From Escherichia coli (GTDB lineage: Bacteria > Pseudomonadota > Gammaproteobacteria > Enterobacterales > Enterobacteriaceae): 64,000 bases of DNA. Position 1 is the first letter of the stretch. Every line of letters starts with the position of its first letter. Both the position numbers and the translations under genes were made by a program. The notes under the pieces are model-generated. The model ran no database searches and was not told the DNA's origin. It saw nothing but the letters and a program-made list of their open reading frames with translations. Shown piece after piece: positions 1-59,455 of the stretch. The stretch lies in assembly GCF_044324875.1 (NCBI RefSeq), contig NZ_CP172185.1. One strand, given 5' to 3'.

Positions 1-2
1 AA

Positions 3-740
3 ATGAAAATGACATTTATGAAAGGACTACCCCTTTTGTTGTTGGTTGCCAGTCTGTGCAGCCACGCTGCACTACAACCCGATCGCACTCGTATTGTGTT
101 TAACGCTAATGATAAAGCTACCAGTCTGCGCGTGGATAATCGTAGCGATAAACTCCCCTACCTCGCTTATTCCTGGCTCGAAAATGAAAAAGGGGAGAAA
201 AGCGACGATCTTCTGGTCGCCCTGCCACCGATACAACGTCTGGAACCGAAAGCAACAACGCAGGTACGGATAGTAAAGCAAGCCTCGACCACAAAATTAC
301 CGGGCGATCGCGAAACGCTATTTTTCTACAATATGCGTGAAATTCCTCCCTCCCCAGAAAAAAACAGCGGCCATGCCGTTCTGCAGGTCGCCATCCAGAG
401 TCGTATCAAGGTGTTCTGGAGACCGTCTGCGTTACGCAAGAAAGCAGGAGAAAAAGTCGAGCTACAGTTACAAGTCAGCCAGCAGGGCAATCAACTTAAC
501 TTAAAAAACCCGACCGGCTATTACCTGACAATCGCCTACCTGGGACGAAATGAGCAAGGTATTCTCCCGGGCTTCAAAACCGTGATGGTTGCGCCTTTTA
601 GTACGGTCAACACAAACACCGGAAGTTATAGCGGCAGGCAGTTTTATCTCGGTTATATGGATGATTACGGCGCGTTACGCATGACGACGCTCAACTGCAG
701 CGGACAATGCCGTTTACAAGCAGTGGAGGCGAAGAAATGA
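3..740 (+). CDS. ybgP: Periplasmic fimbrial chaperone (PapD-like); the usher gene upstream is cut off by the window edge
   Basis: 245-aa ORF with N-terminal signal peptide and chaperone-like sequence; start may be the ATG at 3 or 9; stop overlaps the next gene start. Confidence 0.75.
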
Positions 741-1798
741 GTACTGGCAAAGGATTGTTGCTCGTCATCTGTCTGGTATTTCTGCCATTGAAGTCTGCGC
801 TAGCGCTGAACTGCTATTTTGGTACTTCCGGCGGAACGGTAGAAAAATCGGAAGCAATTCAACCCTTTGCTGTGCCAGGTAATGCCAAACCCGGCGATAA
901 GATCTGGGAATCTGACGATATTAAAATTCCCGTCTATTGTGACAACAATACCAACGGCAACTTTGAAAGCGAACATGTCTACGCATGGGTAAACCCCTAC
1001 CCGGGGGTACAGGATCGTTATTATCAACTCGGCGTGACATACAATGGTGTCGATTACGATGCCAGTCTGGGGAAAAGCCGCATCGACACCAACCAGTGTA
1101 TCGACAGTAAGAACATTAACATTTATACCCCTGAGCAGATTATCGCGATGGGCTGGCAGAACAAAATATGCTCGGGTGACCCCGCTAATATTCACATGTC
1201 GCGAACCTTTCTCGCTCGTATGCGGTTATACGTTAAGATTCGCAAAATGCCGCCGCATGATTATCAAAGTACGCTTAGCGACTATATCGTCGTGCAATTT
1301 GACGGTGCCGGTAGCGTTAACGAAGACCCTACCGCCCAAAACCTGAAATATCATATTACTGGTCTGGAAAACATTCGCGTGCTGGATTGCAGCGTCAATT
1401 TTTCCATTTCACCGGAAACACAGGTGATTGATTTTGGTAAATTTAATTTGCTGGATATTCGTCGCCACACAATGTCGAAAACATTCAGTATTAAGACGAC
1501 AAAATCACAAAATGACCAATGCACCGACGGATTTAAAGTCAGTTCCTCCTTTTATACCGAAGAAACGTTGGTTGAAGAAGATAAAGCACTGCTGATTGGT
1601 AATGGTCTGAAGCTACGTTTGCTGGATGAAAACGCCTCGCCTTATACCTTCAATAAATATGCTGAATACGCCGATTTCACCAGCGATATGCTGATCTACG
1701 AAAAAACCTATACGGCTGAACTTTCGTCCATTCCAGGTACCCCCATCGAGGCTGGCCCCTTCGATACAGTGGTGCTTTTTAAGATTAACTATAACTGA
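737..1798 (+). CDS. ybgO: Fimbrial adhesin-like protein
   Basis: ORF 707..1798; likely start is the ATG at 737 (MSTGKGLLL..., signal peptide), overlapping the ybgP stop as ATGA; sits downstream of the chaperone. Confidence 0.7.
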
Positions 1799-1949
1799 TT
1801 TGCCATGATGCCCTTTGCAGCCGGAAAGGGCATCTCTTTCAGAAAATTGCTGATTTTCCCCTTTTCCTTGATTGCTGTTATTTTTTCCTGGCCCGGCTTT
1901 CTTTATGCTGTATCGATACACCAAAGAAAAAATAATGAGGGAACGAAGG

Positions 1950-2996
1950 ATGCCAGTTTTGCAGTGGGGAATGTTATGTGTGCTCTCACTTCTCCTTTCT
2001 ATTGGTTTCCTCGCGGTTCATCTCCCGGCGGCGCTATTACTTGGGCCGATGATCGCCGGGATCATCTTTAGTATGCGCGGAATTACTCTGCAACTTCCCC
2101 GCTCTGCTTTTCTCGCCGCCCAGGCCATTCTTGGCTGCATGATTGCGCAAAACCTCACTGGTTCGATTCTCACCACGCTGGCCGTCAACTGGCCGATCGT
2201 GCTTACAATTTTACTGGTGACGCTGCTTTCCAGCGCCATTGTTGGGTGGCTACTGGTGCGCTATAGCTCATTACCTGGAAATACCGGTGCCTGGGGTTCT
2301 TCTCCTGGCGGCGCGGCGGCAATGGTCGCTATGGCGCAAGATTACGGCGCAGATATTCGCCTGGTGGCGTTTATGCAATATCTGCGAGTGCTGTTCGTCG
2401 CGGGGGCCGCTGTTCTGGTCACCCGCATGATGCTGGGTGATAACGCTGAAGCGGTTAACCAGCAAATCGTCTGGTTCCCTTCAGTGAGCATTAATCTCCT
2501 GCTTACGATTTTGCTCGCAGTCGTTGCCGGTACAGTGGGATGCTTGCTACGTCTTCCTTCCGGCACGATGCTCATCCCGATGCTGGCGGGCGCAGTGCTC
2601 CAGTCTGGTCAGCTCATCACCATCGAACTACCGGAATGGCTGCTTGCGATGGCGTATATGGCAATTGGTTGGCGGATTGGTCTTGGTTTCGATAAACAAA
2701 TATTACTGCGGGCATTGCGCCCGCTGCCACAAATCCTGCTGTCGATTTTTGCTCTGCTGGCTATTTGTGCGGGTATGGCGTGGGGACTGACCCGATTTAT
2801 GCACATTGATTTTATGACTGCCTACCTCGCCACCAGCCCCGGCGGGCTTGATACCGTGGCGGTCATCGCCGCAGGGAGCAATGCCGATATGGCGCTTATT
2901 ATGGCGATGCAAACCCTGCGCCTGTTCAGTATTTTGCTGACGGGGCCAGCCATTGCGCGGTTTATTTCAACCTATGCGCCGAAACGGTCGGCCTAG
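1950..2996 (+). CDS. abrB: AbrB-family putative membrane transporter/regulator
   Basis: ORF 1872..2996; very hydrophobic multi-pass membrane protein; internal start MPVLQWGML gives about 348 aa. Confidence 0.75.
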
Positions 2997-3784
2997 TGCT
3001 GGCAGCCCGGACACCAGTAAAACGGGCGCGAGGACAGCGTGGTTTTCTCAATGATGCTGCCACAGCGTTCACACGGTTCGCCATCACGATGAAAAACCTT
3101 AAAGCGAAACAACGCCCCATGATGTTTATTCTCATCCACCTGCCCCCGCGTAGCGTAAGAAAGTCGAGGAATATCCAGTAACGCGTCTGCGAGTGCATCC
3201 AGTTGCGCCGCACTGAGATCTTTCGCTTTATGATTGCCGGTTAACCCCACCTGCCAGAGGATCTCCACCCGCAAATAATTACCAAGTCCTGCCAGAAACG
3301 CCTGATCGAGCAGTAATCCAGCAAACTGACGGTTACGAAAGCGCGGCGACAATAATCGTTCCTTTACCACCTCTGGCGTCAGATTCGGATCCAGCACATC
3401 TGGACCAACGCGTTGTAAAAACGGATGCGTGGTCAGTTGTTCCGGGGTCAACATCTCAATATCCGAGGCGCTATAAAGCAGAATGGTTTTGTCAGCCGTT
3501 TGCAGTTTTACCCGCAATACTCGCGTGGTCTGCGGCTCTTCGCCGGTTTCAACCACGCGCCAGACGCCGTAAAGCTGATTATGGCTGTAGAGCGTTAAGT
3601 CGTTGGAAAAATGAGTTAACAACGCCTTACCACGCGTTTCCACATGGGTAACGTGTTGACCGATAAGTCGTGATTGATAAGATTTTAACTGCGGGAAGGC
3701 AAACCAGACATCAGTTAGTGGTTTGCCTTTGATCGCCGCCTCCAGGTTATCCGCTGCACGGCGGATCTCCGGGCCTTCAGGCAT
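2993..3784 (-). CDS. nei: Endonuclease VIII (Fpg/Nei DNA glycosylase)
   Basis: 263-aa ORF starting MPEGPEIRR (catalytic N-terminal Pro) with a C-terminal CxxC...CxxC zinc finger. Confidence 0.9.
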
Positions 3785-3819
3785 GGTGATATCCTTTTTT
3801 CATTCTTTATTAAGCGGGG

Positions 3820-4554
3820 TTATGCTGCGACAACAATCCCCTTTTCGGCAAATGTAGAGCGTAGTCGGCGGGCGAACGCCAGTGCGTGCTCGCCATCGCC
3901 ATGCAGGCAGACCGTTTGCGCCGTGACCGTTGCCCATTCGCCGGTGATGCTTTTGACTCTGCCGTGTTGCACCATCTCCAACGTTTGCGCCAGCGCCTGT
4001 TCTTCGTTTTCAATCAACGCGCCTGGCTGGCTTCGCGGCACCAGCGAACCGTCTGCCTGATAACCGCGATCGGCAAACACTTCCTCGCGCGTTGTCAGGC
4101 CATATTGCTTGCCTGCACGAATCAGCTCGCTTCCTGCCAGCCCGACGAGAATCAATACCGGATCGCAAGCGTATACCGCTCTGGCGATGGCGTCTGCCAG
4201 TTGTGCCTCTTTCGCCGCCTGGTTGTATAACATGCCGTGCGGTTTGACATGACACATTACGCCGCCTTGCGCACGGGTAATCGCTGCCAGCGCGCCAATT
4301 TGATACAGCGTCTGGGCGTAAACGGTTTCTGGCGGCAGCTGCATGGCGCTGCGACCAAAATTTTCCCTGTCGGGAAAACTCGGGTGAGCGCCAATCGCGA
4401 CACCATTTTTTATTGCTTCACGCACGCAAGCCTGCATGGTTTGCGCATTGCCTGCATGAAATCCACAGGCAATATTGGCAGAGGAAACCAGCGTTAATAG
4501 CTCTGCGTCGCTGGCGCAGCCTTCGCCCAGATCGGCGTTCAGATCAATTTTCAT
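3820..4554 (-). CDS. pxpA: 5-oxoprolinase subunit A (LamB/YcsF family)
   Basis: 244-aa ORF, LamB/YcsF-like; first in an overlapping three-gene set with the two genes upstream. Confidence 0.85.
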
Positions 4555-5476
4555 TGTGCAGCCGCCACGCTAATTGTTCGAAATAACGTTGCTGATCTTG
4601 CCGTGCTTTCAGTGCCTCTTCCAGTGAACACTGGACAAAATGAATCGGCTGACCGAGCGGAATTTGCGCCAGATGGTACATATCAGCCTCAATGATACAG
4701 GCAATACGCGGATAACCACCCGTGGTCTGTGCGTCGTTCATTAACACAATGGGCTGCCCGTTATGCGGCACCTGCACCACACCCGGTAACAAACCGTGAG
4801 ATAACAGTTCGCGATCGGTGGTGCGTTTTAAAATTTGCCCCTGTAAGCGATAGCCCATTCGGTTACTTTGCGAGCTAAGCTGCCAGGGCGAACGCCAGAA
4901 TGCATCCTGCGAGGCGCGATCGAACTCATGATATTCCGGCCCCGGCAAGGCGCGAATGCGGTTGCCCCACAGCAACTGTTTAACGCCCTGCGCTTCCATA
5001 AAATCACGCTTCGATTTGCCCATCGGAAGTCGGTCACCATCCTTCAGTAAACGGCCTTCCAGCCCGCCAATCCCCACTTTGAGATCGGTGCTGCATGACC
5101 CCATTACCGGCGGAACATCAATACCACCCGCGACCGCCAGATAACTGCGCATCCCGTGCTGCGGGCGTTTAAGCGTTAAACGCTGGCCTGCTTTCATCGG
5201 CAATCGCCAGCCAGTCCAGACGGCATTATCATCCAGCCGCGCTTCGCAACCTGCCCCCGTCAGGGCAAACCACCCATCAGTTTCGAACTCTACCGTTAAC
5301 TGACCGAGCGTGATCTCCAGCGCGGGGGCATTGGCGTCATTACCCACCAGCAGGTTAGCAATGCGTAACGCAGGCATATCCAGTGCGCCGCAGTGGCTGA
5401 TACCCGACTGGCGAAAACCGTGACGACCGCCATCCTGCACAGTGGTATACATGCCCGCACGAATAATCTTCAGCAT
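4544..5476 (-). CDS. pxpC: 5-oxoprolinase subunit C (allophanate hydrolase subunit 2-like)
   Basis: 310-aa ORF overlapping its neighbours on both sides; conserved operon context. Confidence 0.85.
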
Positions 5477-6126
5477 ACTCCCTCCTTCTGCGGTACAAAG
5501 CGCACGCTGTCTCCCGGACGTAATAAGATGGGTTCGTCACGCGCCGGATCAAACAGGCTGAGTGAGGTATGACCAATCAACTGCCAGCCCCCCGGCGTTG
5601 CCAGCGGATAAACACCAGTCTGCGGCCCGCCGATCCCGACAGAACCTGCCGGAACGAGCAAGCGCGGTTCAGCGCGACGTGGCGTGTGTAGTTGTTCCGG
5701 CAAACTCCCGAGATACGGGAAGCCCGGTTGAAAACCTAAAAACCAGACCACGTATTCCACGGAGGAGTGCAATTCAACAACCTGTTTTTCGCTCAACCCA
5801 CAATGCGCCGCGACCACCGCCAAATCCGGTCCGCCTGCGCCACCGTAAACCACCGGAATTTCAATAAAACGAGACTCCGGCTCCAGCGCCTCACTCTCCT
5901 CCCACCAGCGTTGCAAACGCTCTATGGCATCCAGTGCCAGCGACTCAGGATTACGTAAAATCACCGTGATATTGTTCATGCCGGGAATGGCTTCAACCAC
6001 ATTCGGCATATCCACCAGACGCTGCGCCAGTCGCCAGATCCGTTTCTGGCTAGCCAGCGTCACCGGCGGTTCCAGCTCCAGCACTACCGCCGTTTCACCT
6101 ATCAGATAACAACGCGCTCGTTGCAC
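5470..6126 (-). CDS. pxpB: 5-oxoprolinase subunit B (allophanate hydrolase subunit 1-like)
   Basis: 218-aa ORF overlapping pxpC; conserved operon context. Confidence 0.85.
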
Positions 6127-6148
6127 TTTCGATCCCTCTGATTATTCG

Positions 6149-6892
6149 TTATGCAGGATTAGGAATATCAATAAAGGTCACATCAAGATCGGTATTTTCA
6201 TTCAGCCACTCGCTCAATGCGCGAATACCACCGCGTTCAGTGGCATGGTGACCCGCAGCATAAAAATGCAATCCCTGCTCGCGGGCTGAATGAATGGTCT
6301 GTTCTGAAACTTCGCCAGTAATAAAAGCATCCACGCCAAAACGCGCGGCGCTATCGATAAAACTTTGCCCGCCGCCCGTGCACCAGGCAACGCGCTGGAC
6401 CACCTCAGGTCCGGTATCGCCACACCATAACGGCTTACGTCCCAGACGCGCTTCAATCCAGGAGGCTAGTTCCAGTCCCGGCACAGGCATGGTCAGTTCG
6501 CCCCACGGCACCAACGGCTCAATTTCGCCCATGACCGTGATCCCCAGTAACGCCGCCAGCTGTGCGTTATTGCCCAGCTCAGGATGTGCGTCAAGCGGCA
6601 AATGCCAGCCATACAGGTTGATATCATTTGCCAGCAACGTTTTTAAACGGTTACGCTTCATTCCGCGAATGACCGGAGATTCGCCTTTCCAGAAGTAGCC
6701 ATGATGCACAATGACCGCATCCGCGCCCAGACGCACTGCCTCATCGAGCAAAGCCTGGCTGGCAGTGACACCGGTAACAATTTTTTGCACCGTCTCTTTG
6801 CCTTCCACCTGCAAACCATTCGGCGCGTAATCACTAATCGCCGCGCTGTTCAGTTTTTCGTTAATCAGTTGTTCCAGTTCGGTGTTTTTCAT
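6149..6892 (-). CDS. ybgI: Nif3-family metal-binding protein (GTP cyclohydrolase 1 type 2 homolog)
   Basis: 247-aa ORF; NIF3/YbgI family; first gene of the ybgI-pxpBCA cluster. Confidence 0.85.
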   Translation of the reverse strand: MKNTELEQLINEKLNSAAISDYAPNGLQVEGKETVQKIVTGVTASQALLDEAVRLGADAVIVHHGYFWKGESPVIRGMKRNRLKTLLANDINLYGWHLPLDAHPELGNNAQLAALLGITVMGEIEPLVPWGELTMPVPGLELASWIEARLGRKPLWCGDTGPEVVQRVAWCTGGGQSFIDSAARFGVDAFITGEVSEQTIHSAREQGLHFYAAGHHATERGGIRALSEWLNENTDLDVTFIDIPNPA

Positions 6893-6979
6893 CTTCGCGC
6901 CTTCCGTATTCTGATAGCTACACCGTTAACATAGCGTTACCTCGCCTGTTCGTCGATAGCCAATCTTTTGACATATTAA

Positions 6980-8644
<1,665 letters not shown>

Positions 8645-10694: not shown

Positions 10695-11102
10695 TCAATA
10701 ACTCATAATAAATTTCATGGTGGCGATAAATAGTTTCTTTTCTTCATCACTCATGGTAGAAGCGTTTAACATGTTGCCATAAAATTTACTGATGATATTT
10801 TTTAATTGCAGCAAATGCAAAGGAGAAAAATAGTCACTCCCGATGAGATTACTCAATACCAGCAATAATTCTCCATTATATAAATAACCTACCATAAGAT
10901 TAATCTCTATCATCTCAATTGCTTTTTGTACAGCAAGCGCTGGTAAGATATTCTGACGAAGCATTTTGGCAATATCATTTTCATCCAGTTCATCCGGTGT
11001 TTTATCCAATAAAGAGTTATACCAGTTTATTAAACCACTTTTGAAAGCGAATGAATCATATTGCAGGTGATAAATCTGTTTTAGGGTTTCTTTATTTTTC
11101 AT
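10695..11102 (-). CDS. Hypothetical protein (135 aa) in an AT-rich islet
   Basis: ORF in a very AT-rich stretch; 12 bp downstream of the 94-aa ORF on the same strand; no family recognised. Confidence 0.45.
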   Translation of the reverse strand: MKNKETLKQIYHLQYDSFAFKSGLINWYNSLLDKTPDELDENDIAKMLRQNILPALAVQKAIEMIEINLMVGYLYNGELLLVLSNLIGSDYFSPLHLLQLKNIISKFYGNMLNASTMSDEEKKLFIATMKFIMSY

Positions 11103-11114
11103 TTTATAATGTCT

Positions 11115-11399
11115 TTATTTGCTATGATTTTTCTGATTTAATTCTATATCATTTAAAGCATTTTCAAGCCAATCATCCATGTTCTTAATTTTAGCCCGCT
11201 CATACAAATCATGCACAACATCTTCATAACGCCGTCCATCATTGACCATACAATTAGCTGTATGAGGCAGAACATGTATAAAATCAGACAATATAAAACA
11301 AGCCTTTGCATTTCCAGAGTTAGCTGCAGTTCTGATATCAATCAAGCCTCTGGCAATTAATTTAAGAATAACACTAACATCTTGCATTTTAATTTCCAT
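11115..11399 (-). CDS. Hypothetical protein (94 aa) in an AT-rich islet
   Basis: ORF in the AT-rich islet, co-oriented with its neighbours; no family recognised. Confidence 0.4.
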   Translation of the reverse strand: MEIKMQDVSVILKLIARGLIDIRTAANSGNAKACFILSDFIHVLPHTANCMVNDGRRYEDVVHDLYERAKIKNMDDWLENALNDIELNQKNHSK

Positions 11400-11481
11400 A
11401 TCATCCAGTTAAATTTTAGTCGTAAATCGTCTATCTAAAAAAGATGAAATTAACATTTATAAATTTATTACAATATAAAAA

Positions 11482-11835
11482 TCAAAAATATACATCATCA
11501 GCTTCTACTGAAAACTCCATGGCTCCTAAGGCACCTAAATCAATACTAAATATGGTATCACTTTCCTTAGCACTCCCAACATAGATAAAATAGCCTAAAT
11601 CCCCATCCTGACCTATCAAAAAATAGTCAGGCTCCACTCGTTGAATATCATATGTTTCATTTCTTTCAATAAGATCAGAATAGTTATACAGATATAATAT
11701 TTCATGCTTCTTATTAGTTATTTCATAGGCCTCACTATCTTTAATTTCTTCTATTAAGAAACGTTTATACACTGGAGGAAATTTGATTGACATGTCAAAT
11801 TCAATTTTATTTATATATTCTATGATTTTATTCAT
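11482..11835 (-). CDS. SUKH/SMI1-KNR4-like protein (putative orphan immunity protein, 117 aa)
   Basis: Motifs FPPVYKRFL and DYFLIGQDGDLGYFIYVGS resemble the SMI1/KNR4 (SUKH) immunity family; AT-rich; no toxin gene upstream. Confidence 0.5.
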   Translation of the reverse strand: MNKIIEYINKIEFDMSIKFPPVYKRFLIEEIKDSEAYEITNKKHEILYLYNYSDLIERNETYDIQRVEPDYFLIGQDGDLGYFIYVGSAKESDTIFSIDLGALGAMEFSVEADDVYF

Positions 11836-12069
11836 GTTAAGAATACCTGAGCGGTTAATTATCGGTTATTGTGATGAATATATATTCGCTTTTAATTTTC
11901 AATAACTCATCACGGAAATACATATTGCTTTGTAGGCAAGCGCTAATAATACTTTATGAACCTGACTTCCGCCAGATATTCAACCTAAATATTCATGACG
12001 CAGTAATGTTTTAGAAAGCCACTAACTGCCCAGATAGTGCATCATCTACTACATTGGCGATTATACTCT

Positions 12070-47267: not shown

Positions 47268-48806
47268 ATGGCTTTTGCCTCATTAATTGAACGCCAGCGC
47301 ATTCGCCTGCTGCTGGCGTTATTATTCGGTGCCTGCGGAACGCTGGCCTTCTCTCCTTGCGACGTCTGGCCTGCGGCGATTATTTCGCTGATGGGGCTTC
47401 AGGCGCTGACCTTTAACCGCCGTCCACTCCAGTCTGCCGCTATTGGCTTTTGCTGGGGATTTGGTCTCTTTGGCAGCGGTATTAACTGGGTCTATGTCAG
47501 CATCGCGACTTTTGGCGGAATGCCTGGCCCGGTTAACATCTTCCTGGTGGTGCTGCTGGCGGCGTATTTGTCGCTGTATACCGGACTGTTTGCTGGCGTG
47601 CTGTCGCGTCTGTGGCCGAAAACCACCTGGCTGCGCGTGGCGATTGCCGCCCCTGCTCTCTGGCAAGTGACCGAGTTTCTGCGCGGTTGGGTGCTGACCG
47701 GCTTCCCGTGGTTACAGTTCGGCTATAGCCAGATTGATGGCCCGTTAAAAGGGCTGGCACCGTTAATGGGCGTGGAAGCCATTAACTTCCTGCTGATGAT
47801 GGTTAGTGGCCTGCTGGCACTGGCGTTGGTCAAACGCAACTGGCGTCCGCTGGTGGTGGCCGTCGTGCTGTTCGCTCTTCCCTTCCCGCTGCGTTACATC
47901 CAGTGGTTCACCCCGCAACCGGAGAAAACCATTCAGGTTTCGATGGTTCAGGGCGATATTCCGCAATCACTGAAATGGGACGAAGGCCAGCTTCTTAATA
48001 CGCTGAAGATTTACTACAACGCAACGGCACCGCTGATGGGCAAATCATCGTTGATTATCTGGCCGGAGTCGGCGATAACCGATCTGGAAATTAATCAGCA
48101 ACCGTTCCTCAAAGCACTGGACGGTGAGTTGCGCGATAAAGGTAGCTCGCTGGTCACCGGGATTGTCGACGCGCGTCTCAATAAGCAGAACCGCTACGAT
48201 ACCTACAACACCATCATCACGCTGGGGAAAGGTGCGCCGTACAGCTACGAATCAGCCGATCGCTATAACAAAAACCATCTGGTGCCGTTTGGCGAGTTTG
48301 TCCCGCTGGAGTCGATTCTGCGTCCGTTAGCGCCGTTCTTTGATCTGCCGATGTCGTCGTTCAGCCGTGGGCCATATATCCAGCCACCGCTGTCGGTAAA
48401 CGGTATTGAGCTTACTGCGGCTATTTGCTACGAGATCATTCTCGGCGAGCAAGTGCGTGATAACTTCCGCCCGGATACCGACTACCTGCTGACCATCTCC
48501 AACGATGCGTGGTTTGGTAAATCTATTGGTCCATGGCAACACTTCCAGATGGCGCGAATGCGTGCGCTGGAGCTGGCGCGCCCGCTGTTGCGTAGCACCA
48601 ATAACGGTATTACGGCGGTGATTGGCCCGCAGGGGGAGATTCAGTCGATGATCCCGCAATTCACCCGCGAAGTGTTAACCACTAACGTGACACCGACCAC
48701 CGGACTCACACCATACGCACGTACCGGCAACTGGCCGCTGTGGGTACTGACGGCACTGTTTGGTTTTGCCGCTGTGTTGATGAGTCTGCGAGCACGTAAA
48801 CGTTAA
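47268..48806 (+). CDS. lnt: Apolipoprotein N-acyltransferase
   Basis: 512 aa; N-terminal membrane domain plus nitrilase-like CN-hydrolase domain. Confidence 0.95.
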
Positions 48807-48883
48807 TGTGCCTGATGTATCCGGCATAAACAAAACATACTTTCTCTTTGAGCTGTGGGGCGTGATTATCATGCCCCTTTTTC

Positions 48884-50761
48884 TTACGGTTCAGGGATAC
48901 AAGCCACATCGCCATATTGGGGATGCCGAATAATTGCCTGCGGATCAAGCGAGCGCGTCCTGTCCATTTGGATTAACCCGTTCTTCGCCATAACAAATAT
49001 CTTTCTACCATCCGCTGAAAAACGAAGATGATTAACGTAGCTGGCAGGATAAACGCCAATAATCTGCCCGGCATTAATATTGAGCAGAATGACATAACCT
49101 TGCAGGCCATATGACACCAACGCTAAATACTGACCGTCCGGGCTAATACCCTCAACGGAATAAACGCTCCTGCTACACCATTGCGTCATAATGCTGGCTT
49201 GCTGATCCCCAACTCTTATACGTGAAATCCCCTGGCTGTCGGCAAAAATTACATCCCCGTTTTCAGGTCGAAAACGCATCGCCGATATCGTTCCACGCGC
49301 ATCACTAGCCGGATAGCTTTCTTTTTGATGCGTGATGGTATTGATGCGTACAATGTCACCTCTGACCATACCGGGTATCAACAATGTTTTTTCATCCGGG
49401 GAAAGTGCCATAACCCAGGCGCCTGGTTTACCGCTCGTCCCCGTCCCGTCGTATTTCTCCAGCGGGATATCCGCCACATGCTGATAAGCCACCAGATCAA
49501 TGGCTGACACACTATTACTGGTGCGATTCATCACCCAGGCTTTTGTGCCATCGCGCGAGAGGATAAGGCTGTCAGGATGTGCGCCGGTGGTAATCGACTG
49601 AATAATCTCCCCCGTCGCCACGTTAATGACCGATAACGCATTCGCTTCAAATGAAGTTGCATAAAGCAACGTTTCATCCGGGCTTAACGCCAGCGATCTG
49701 ACGGCCTGATCTTTACAGCCACCACAATGTTTGAGTGACTTTTCTTTCGCTATGGGCGCTGTAAAGGTATGCAGGATTTTCTTTTGTCCGAGGTCGAAAA
49801 CAACAATGCTGTTGGTGTTTTCAATTGCGGCATACAACGTATTACCATCCCGACTGATCGCCATATCATGGATATCGGCAATCTCAGCGAGCAAATCACC
49901 ACTGGCCTGCTCACGACTTACCGGAGCGGATAATGTTTCCCTGAGGGCGTTGCGCTCCTCCACTAACTGCTGCTTTTTTTGTCGTCGCTCTTGTTCAATC
50001 TCCTGCGGATAAAACTCTTCACGCAGGCTGTGCCTGACCAGTAAAACTGATTCATCAATCTGCTGCTGCACAAGCCAGATAGCCCCGGTAAGAAGAAGAC
50101 TGCCCGCAACAATAATCCCGCCTTCCGTAACAAGCCGGTTTTGCCCAGATAAACGCGCACTCAGCCACCCCAACGCACCACCCGCAATCAGGCCGCCAAT
50201 ATGACAAGCATTATCTATTCCTGTTTGCCGGGCACCATACAACAGTGTCAGCGCCACCATACCCAACAGAGAAAATACTCGCCGCTGGTTTTTATGGTAT
50301 GTGCCCGCACCTGAAGCAAGCTGTGTTGCTATCGCAGCGCCAGCAATTCCCATAATTGCCCCGGATGCCCCAACGCTGATGACTATCTGCTCACTTTCGC
50401 GTAACGCATAACAGGCGCTGATTAGCCCACCAAAGACGCCAGAGAATAGCCAGACAATCAGGAGTCGCCATTTCCCCAGTATCCGTTCCGCCACTGCCCC
50501 CACCACCAGGAGTGCAAACATATTCATCAGCAAATGGGGAAAACTACTGTGCAGAAAGACACTGCTCAATAAGCGCCAGGGTTCACCCGACAACGTGAGA
50601 GAAGCAACGTTAGCACCAAGATGGATGAGTGCGGATTGATCGACGTCTTCATAACTCATCCATTGTGCGAGATAACAAAATATCCCAACACAGAGCGCAA
50701 AAAGGATAAGAGTTATTGCGGGTAATTGAACATTTAACGGCTTAACCGAAGATGCAGACAT
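48884..50761 (-). CDS. Rhomboid-family intramembrane serine protease fused to a C-terminal YVTN/WD40-like beta-propeller (625 aa)
   Basis: N-terminal polytopic region with rhomboid motifs GASGAIMG (Ser) and HIGGLIAG (His); linker rich in E/R/Q; C-terminal repeats SRDGNTLY, SPDETLLYA, SRDGTKAWV, SPDEKTLLI, SPDGQYLAL, SADGRKIFV. Confidence 0.75.
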   Translation of the reverse strand: MSASSVKPLNVQLPAITLILFALCVGIFCYLAQWMSYEDVDQSALIHLGANVASLTLSGEPWRLLSSVFLHSSFPHLLMNMFALLVVGAVAERILGKWRLLIVWLFSGVFGGLISACYALRESEQIVISVGASGAIMGIAGAAIATQLASGAGTYHKNQRRVFSLLGMVALTLLYGARQTGIDNACHIGGLIAGGALGWLSARLSGQNRLVTEGGIIVAGSLLLTGAIWLVQQQIDESVLLVRHSLREEFYPQEIEQERRQKKQQLVEERNALRETLSAPVSREQASGDLLAEIADIHDMAISRDGNTLYAAIENTNSIVVFDLGQKKILHTFTAPIAKEKSLKHCGGCKDQAVRSLALSPDETLLYATSFEANALSVINVATGEIIQSITTGAHPDSLILSRDGTKAWVMNRTSNSVSAIDLVAYQHVADIPLEKYDGTGTSGKPGAWVMALSPDEKTLLIPGMVRGDIVRINTITHQKESYPASDARGTISAMRFRPENGDVIFADSQGISRIRVGDQQASIMTQWCSRSVYSVEGISPDGQYLALVSYGLQGYVILLNINAGQIIGVYPASYVNHLRFSADGRKIFVMAKNGLIQMDRTRSLDPQAIIRHPQYGDVACIPEP

Positions 50762-58751: not shown

Positions 58752-59455
58752 AGGTCGCTCACATCCTTAAGCGTTACCGGGCATTCAGGCTGGGCAGTCA
58801 ATGGCTGCCAGGGAAGCGTGGCATAGAAACGATCGCTTCCCGCTGCCAGCTCTTCGAACATCCGACTCCCGGCGCTATCGTATTTGTACAGGGTTAGCGC
58901 CTCGCGTAACGAAGCGTTGTCTTCGCATTGAGAAGATTGCCAGTAGAGACGCCCTAGTGAATAGGCAGAAAAATAGTGCATCCAGCTGTGATAGTAATGG
59001 TGTGCTCGGACATAGATGCGCGATTGCAGCCATAAACTCTCTTCTTCCGTCAGCCACTTGTTGAGCACACCGACCCGTGACAGAAACCCCATTCGAACAT
59101 AATCCCAGGCTTTGATTCCCCCTTCTCCACAGCACATAGCGGTTTGGGCAACGAATTGGGTATAAATCAACCCTCTCTCCGAGCCACCAGCAATTAATGC
59201 TTTCCACTCTTCAGGGGAAGAGCGATGCCATGTCAGATATAAGCCAGCTAAATCATTGGCATGACCATCATCGGTCATCTGATAAATAGTCTGAATTAAA
59301 TCATCACGATTATTTATTCCCCAGGATGATGAGAGATCGAATTCTTTTATCCCGGTATACATTTTTGGCGAGTCATGCGCGGGCTTGCAACCCTGATTAA
59401 GTATTTCCATGGGCGTAGAAAGCGCAAAAAGAAGATATTGTTCTTCCTTATTCAT
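58748..59455 (-). CDS. ybeU: DUF1266-family protein
   Basis: 235 aa; translationally coupled to djlC; paralogous to the ybeR product. Confidence 0.8.

Follow-up and report, generated by a model that had tools for sequence, protein, structure and literature searches.

The convergent genes nei and abrB of Escherichia coli overlap tail to tail by four base pairs, and this arrangement is a minimal overlap in which the stop codons alone are shared; the transcripts very probably end farther on, inside the partner gene. The junction lies near the start of the stretch analysed here, a window of 64,000 nucleotides (NCBI RefSeq assembly GCF_044324875.1, contig NZ_CP172185.1), whose features are collected in Table 1. 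The plus strand across the junction reads ...cggtcggCCTAGtgctgg... (...CGGTCGGCCTAGTGCTGG...) with C2993, T2994, A2995 and G2996 forming a tetranucleotide of the type [C/T]TA[A/G], in which either strand has a stop. According to the list of open reading frames, abrB stops at TAG 2994-2996 on the plus strand and nei at the TAG read from 2995 to 2993 on the minus strand, so that the coding sequences overlap via the central TA of both stops, with zero shared sense codons and zero intergenic bases. Since no amino-acid codon is under double constraint, the overlap is free of coding cost. The initial annotation had named both genes and placed both stops correctly, as is evident from the open reading frames, the RefSeq annotation and the PDB and Pfam matches, and its description of a CTAG common to both stops with no intergenic space is borne out. 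RefSeq annotates the same 4-bp overlap in E. coli Ecol_316, K-12 MG1655 and three more strains, which are all E. coli records examined; in K-12 MG1655 nei (745935..746726, plus strand) and abrB (746723..747769, minus strand) are b0714 and b0715, and the junction sequence is also CCTAGT. The 1.2 kb round the junction is 100% identical to E. coli Ecol_316 and is present in 5,424 of 5,426 complete E. coli genomes. The particular allele of the window (2400-3600) is uncommon, being matched at an identity of at least 99% in 32 of these 5,424 genomes; 5,302 genomes fall into the 95-99% band, where the sampled ones cluster near 96%.

Table 1. Features of the nei/abrB junction in the window and spacers between the two genes in related species
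Feature	Position or length	Strand	Basis or remark
abrB (ybgN), 348 aa, hydrophobic PF05145 protein, apparently of the membrane	1950..2996	+	ORF; annotated start at window 1950
Candidate rut/Rho-release zone: C-rich, G-poor stretch of nei-strand RNA, C/G 1.6-2.1	2618..2717	-	composition
Putative 3' UTR of the ybgI-pxpBCA-nei transcript, running antisense along the final ~310 nt of abrB	2683..2992	-	published Rho region
GC-rich hairpin GCGGGCGCAAUGCCCGC followed by AGUAAUAUUUGUUUAU; candidate weak terminator-like site or block to exonuclease trimming	2708..2724	-	consensus scan
CTAG with both stop codons	2993..2996	both	sequence and ORF list
nei, endonuclease VIII, 263 codons, C-terminal zinc finger ...CPGCQH right before the stop	2993..3784	-	ORF
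Putative rut site: C-rich, G-poor stretch of abrB-strand RNA opposite the 3' part of nei (antisense), C/G 1.5-2.4	3047..3171	+	composition
pxpA, pxpC, pxpB, ybgI, upstream of nei in the same orientation, nei being last in the row	3820..6892	-	ORFs, annotation
nei-abrB spacer, S. enterica arizonae	6 bp
nei-abrB spacer, C. sedlakii	25 bp
nei-abrB spacer, S. enterica diarizonae	54 bp		REP-like element now provides the abrB stop
nei-abrB spacer, two Citrobacter	about 930 bp		286-aa ORF between the genes

There is nothing out of the ordinary about the overlap, which is already annotated and belongs to a well-described class. Convergent stop-stop overlaps of four bases (CTAG, CTAA, TTAG and TTAA) have been described, four base pairs being the modal overlap length, and their geometry, with the stops of opposite-strand genes sharing the central TA, is identical to that of nei and abrB (Lillo and Krakauer, 2007; PMC2174442). 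For the frequency in E. coli we rely on the published figure of 58 convergent overlaps; a rho-independent terminator, which must sit in the coding sequence of the partner, is predicted for just 23 of the 116 genes involved (about 20%), so that most genes of the class are without one and nothing essential differs at nei/abrB (PMC2174442). Because the overlap belongs to a known class, chance is the wrong yardstick for it. Earlier surveys of overlapping prokaryotic genes had likewise recorded convergent overlaps of four bases. As the overlap already stands in the K-12 reference annotation and the class was described nearly twenty years ago, its mere occurrence matters little; what is added here is that all four tetramers occur among orthologous junctions and that the overlap takes the place of a terminator found in relatives.

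Within the window, nei/abrB is the sole overlap among ten convergent junctions, the other nine having gaps of 9-153 bp; the djlB/ybeT junction (58807-58817) has the gap of 9 bp. No tetranucleotide is rarer in the window than CTAG, of which there are nine copies (at 800, 2993, 6050, 6466, 13499, 23935, 49305, 58954 and 60408); base composition would predict about 250 and a second-order Markov model 39. Read on the nei strand, the context of the junction is CTAGG, one of the contexts targeted by very-short-patch repair. If the T of this CTAGG changed to C, both stops would be abolished, and AbrB would grow by about 8 residues and Nei by 7.

Both partners are genuine protein-coding genes that lie tail to tail on opposite strands, as the PDB and Pfam matches attest. 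Nei ends with ...FYWCPGCQH immediately before the stop and matches the crystallised E. coli endonuclease VIII (PDB 1K3W) from residue 2 to the final His at residue 263 (E 1e-175); it carries the domains Fapy_DNA_glyco, H2TH and zf-FPG_IleRS, the zinc-finger domain covering residues 235-263, and its stop is found at codon 264 in all 80 species-representative Enterobacteriaceae loci that form the comparison set of this study. In AbrB, PF05145 spans residues 29-339 of 348 (E 2e-98) and thus reaches within 9 residues of the stop, and the nine-residue tail is of equal length in all Escherichia and Citrobacter loci with the overlap (14 species). It has been reported that some convergent overlaps in databases are errors of 3' extension (PMC2478687), and one of the two stops might accordingly not be the true protein end. 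Such errors, however, concern long overlaps, both reading frames are well supported and close at the first stop they meet, and the structure match of Nei, the Pfam domains, the constant length of Nei in 80 species and the AbrB tails refute an artefact of annotation, which we regard as next to impossible. The initial annotation had itself named a different, homologue-supported stop of either gene as the observation that would overturn it, and the homologues (1K3W, the 80 loci, PF05145 and the AbrB tails) support no such alternative on either side. Gifford and Wallace are said to have mapped the nei operon in 2000, with the ybgI/pxpBCA genes forming one operon that ends at nei.

Several further observations concern the two genes themselves. 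RefSeq names AbrB an 'AbrB family transcriptional regulator', and PF05145 is matched over the whole length of the protein. It is very hydrophobic, with a mean Kyte-Doolittle value of +1.07, 7.5% charged residues and several hydrophobic segments of 19 residues, and its sequence suggests a polytopic membrane protein more than a regulator that binds DNA. In E. coli OkiPb01694 (locus L085, 1-2500) a prophage that encodes a site-specific integrase and a regulator of the cox family, and that these two genes alone mark as P2-like, is inserted inside abrB about 100 bp ahead of its stop (equivalent to window position ~2895), and the remaining 108 bp of abrB still overlap nei by 4 bp; the 3' part of abrB therefore is a phage attachment site in some strains. 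In E. coli CEC01302 (locus L086, 794-1584) nei is annotated as a frameshifted pseudogene and abrB is intact.

The comparison of the 80 loci places the junction in an evolutionary context. abrB adjoins nei only in Escherichia, in part of Citrobacter and in Salmonella, and 14 of the 19 species with abrB near nei have the exact 4-bp overlap, as CTAG in five species and as CTAA, TTAG and TTAA in three each. Together with the window and K-12 these species make up the 16 overlapped loci referred to below. In the remaining five species, which belong to Salmonella and to some Citrobacter, a spacer of 6-946 bp replaces the overlap. A REP-like palindromic element, ...GCCTGGTGGCGCTACGCTTATCGGGCCTAC..., lies between the two genes in Salmonella enterica subsp. 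diarizonae (locus L011, 3793-3849), and with the stop of abrB inside this element the tail of the protein becomes ...APKQPL. In the Citrobacter werkmanii/youngae group (locus L012, 3795-4643; also L013, L015, L022 and L025), a 282-aa regulator of the AraC type, which is unrelated to abrB, converges on nei with the two stops 2 bp apart; tight tail-to-tail packing on nei has therefore come about not with abrB alone but also with a gene unrelated to it. In a Pluralibacter metagenome-assembled genome (locus L048), the equivalent open reading frame appears to overlap nei by 10 bp. In about 40 species without abrB at this place, gltA is the convergent neighbour of nei at a distance of 41-648 bp.

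These relatives also differ from the overlapped loci in how transcription can end behind nei. In genera that lack abrB beside nei, a hairpin-plus-T terminator mostly stands between nei and gltA; under a strict criterion, one was found in the first 400 nt behind nei in 29 such loci, often as a symmetric arrangement of A-tract, hairpin and T-tract, and in none of the 16 overlapped loci. Klebsiella, Enterobacter and Kluyvera are among the genera in which nei is followed by a bidirectional intrinsic terminator of this type, one example between nei and gltA being AAAAACGCGCC-TTCA-GGCGCGTTTTTT; it is missing from E. coli and from every other locus with the 4-bp overlap. The overlap therefore occupies the place of the bidirectional terminator of the relatives. 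Under the strict criterion, and over the same 400 nt behind nei, loci with a spaced abrB and those with the AraC-type neighbour likewise yielded no terminator. As to the origin, the lineage of Escherichia, Citrobacter and Salmonella would have come to carry abrB together with the fimbrial genes ybgOPQD between nei and gltA, and abrB would thereby have come to abut nei where other Enterobacteriaceae have a bidirectional hairpin terminator; the direction of this change, insertion of abrB as opposed to its loss elsewhere, is judged by parsimony alone. That the 4-bp geometry is retained is evident from the comparison, and its persistence is probably to be explained by the stop codons themselves: both stops need the central TA and the outer bases are free (C or T, G or A), so that CTAG, CTAA, TTAG and TTAA interconvert without any change of protein. 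The junction can thus serve as a worked example of how an ancestral bidirectional terminator can give way to convergent genes that share their stops, with the TA locked and the outer bases drifting through the four tetramers.

A bidirectional intrinsic terminator at nei/abrB, that is, a GC-rich hairpin with a T-run on both strands, was looked for and rejected, as no overlapped locus (0/16) has a strict match within 400 nt on the nei strand or within 800 nt on the abrB strand. On the abrB strand no strict terminator is present within 800 nt past the stop in any of the 16 overlapped loci, and even loose matches are lacking across all of nei in the window, in K-12 and in the closest Escherichia loci. 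A consensus scan of window positions 1700-4700 returned five terminators as compared with 3.8 expected from shuffled sequences and two sigma-70 promoters as compared with 2.3, hence no enrichment, and a scan of positions 1-8000 against Rfam (E ≤ 1) returned no RNA family. The initial annotation had concluded that the two genes leave no room for separate terminators; this holds in so far as neither strand has a convincing intrinsic terminator, but the conclusion was too strong, since terminators can lie in the coding sequence of the partner, as predicted for about 20% of such genes (PMC2174442).

Published data point to termination inside the partner gene on the nei strand. Adams et al. (2021; PMC7815308, supplementary file 2) labelled as 'antisense abrB' a region of Rho-dependent termination at MG1655 position 747036 on the plus strand; its Rho score is 2.87 (p 7.6e-5). 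The reads upstream and downstream of this position amount to 68 and 30 in untreated cells and to 75 and 95 after treatment with bicyclomycin, in one dataset with low counts (PMC7815308). Mapped by its offset from the nei stop, the position lies 310 nt past this stop, at about 2683 in the window, the end point being approximate because the data were evaluated in windows of 800 nt and are thus of coarse resolution (PMC7815308). The read-through that the initial annotation had proposed finds support on the nei strand in this bicyclomycin-sensitive region antisense to abrB. The curated Term-seq tables of the same study list no 3' end between 746500 and 747099, so that no discrete end is called at or near the junction, and for the abrB strand under nei or pxpA neither a significant Rho region nor a Term-seq 3' end is listed (PMC7815308), probably owing to low expression.

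The composition of both RNAs is compatible with an action of Rho. The nei-strand RNA is C-rich and G-poor from +176 to +375 past its stop, with C/G ratios of 1.7 at +176 and 2.1 at +276 that are confounded by the codon content of abrB, and at the same offsets the ratio exceeds 1.2 in all 16 overlapped loci, which may simply reflect abrB codons. On the abrB strand a similar stretch extends from +51 to +175 past the stop, where it is confounded by the codon content of nei. Seen from composition, the C-rich stretches downstream of both stops may be by-products of the codon usage of the partner rather than selected rut sites. In the preferred reading, transcription does not stop at the junction: the transcript of the nei operon continues within abrB for about 300 nt, as RNA that is antisense and not translated, until Rho ends it, as the published experimental evidence indicates (PMC7815308). 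The transcripts of abrB most likely enter nei in turn, and Rho would end them as well, in the C-rich stretch 50-175 nt beyond the stop. In E. coli, Rho is known to terminate RNA that is untranslated or antisense (Adams et al., 2021, PMC7815308, and Peters et al., 2012, as cited there). Past its stop the nei-strand RNA is likewise untranslated and antisense to a gene and shows bicyclomycin-sensitive read-through about 310 nt downstream, and its C-rich, G-poor stretch may be a further resemblance; it differs from known Rho-dependent terminators in that it is seen in one genome-wide dataset with low counts and that its candidate rut and release sites are taken from composition. Termination would thus have been moved into the partner gene and left to Rho, and an intergenic distance of zero does not mean the absence of a terminator.

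Termination inside abrB could also be intrinsic, with the hairpin at 2708-2724 and the U-rich stretch that follows it acting as the real terminator of the nei operon. The hairpin emerged from the consensus scan with seven pairs, six of them G-C, it lies about 25 nt upstream of the published Rho coordinate, and a terminator inside the partner's coding sequence is predicted for about 20% of the genes that take part in convergent overlaps (PMC2174442). Its tail AGUAAUAUUU, however, is a poor U-tract that fails the stricter criterion, its folding energy of -13.8 kcal/mol is no better than that of shuffled sequence (z = -1.0), and read-through in this region is sensitive to bicyclomycin (PMC7815308), all of which makes embedded intrinsic termination improbable. 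The hairpin is kept only in E. coli and the closest clades and is broken in E. whittamii, in E. albertii and in all Citrobacter loci that keep the overlap, so that it was rejected as a conserved intrinsic terminator. More plausibly, it protects a 3' end that is terminated by Rho and trimmed by exonucleases, rather than terminating transcription itself.

The convergence of nei and abrB without any spacer also brings to mind that RNA polymerases coming from the nei operon and from abrB might meet near the junction, each terminating the other, a mechanism documented for hundreds of E. coli genes (bioRxiv 10.1101/2022.10.23.513370). Overlapping bidirectional terminators of this collision type (Ju et al., 2019, as cited in Wang et al., 2022; bioRxiv 10.1101/2022.10.23.513370) likewise concern convergent pairs whose transcripts overlap at their 3' ends, and in E. 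coli a small stem GCCGA/UCGGC is present just inside abrB beside the CTAG. The mechanism, however, needs a stem-loop for positioning and works better at high expression (bioRxiv 10.1101/2022.10.23.513370). Folding at the junction is not stronger than in shuffled sequence (z = -0.2 and -0.6), 15 species together yield a weak consensus structure of -8 kcal/mol, and the stem of E. coli is unconserved, so that a conserved stem-loop fixing the site of collision was rejected. In contrast to collision-type terminators, nei and abrB are lowly expressed, and the sole measured signal, on the nei strand, has low read counts, depends on Rho and lies about 310 nt beyond the junction. Collision-type termination at nei/abrB is unlikely, and we give a collision-driven bidirectional terminator little credence. 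The initial annotation had also raised transcriptional interference; as the expression of either gene appears to be weak, at tens of reads per 800 nt, interference is not expected to be strong, and polymerase collisions and antisense pairing would probably be of little consequence.

It might further be argued that the 3' overlap of the transcripts, of about 300 nt, has been selected for a mutual antagonism of the nei operon and abrB similar to an excludon. Read-through of the nei transcript antisense to abrB has been measured (PMC7815308), and the geometry of the overlap persists in Escherichia as well as in several Citrobacter. This retention is explained without a regulatory role by the double constraint on the TA, and spacers of 6-946 bp separate the genes in Salmonella and some Citrobacter, other Citrobacter have an unrelated AraC-type gene 2 bp from nei, most genera are without abrB at this place, and a reciprocal expression of the nei operon and abrB is unsupported. 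Regulatory antisense coupling thus appears very improbable. In its most explicit form, selection would maintain both the overlap and the antisense overlap of about 300 nt, so that the ybgI-pxp-nei operon, which serves the repair of oxidative DNA damage, would be negatively coupled with abrB, a gene named for regulating aidB of the alkylation response, via collision of RNA polymerases or cleavage of the duplex by RNase III, and this too we consider highly doubtful. A shared pair of stops with Rho-dependent ends inside the partner gene remains the preferred reading.

Two further places in the window attracted attention. Between ybfA and ybgA (10695-12000), three small accessory genes are annotated, one of which encodes an immunity protein of contact-dependent growth inhibition; in K-12 the RhsC element occupies this position. 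At 47581-49457 lies a gene for an intramembrane protease of the rhomboid family, which is annotated as frameshifted in Ecol_316.
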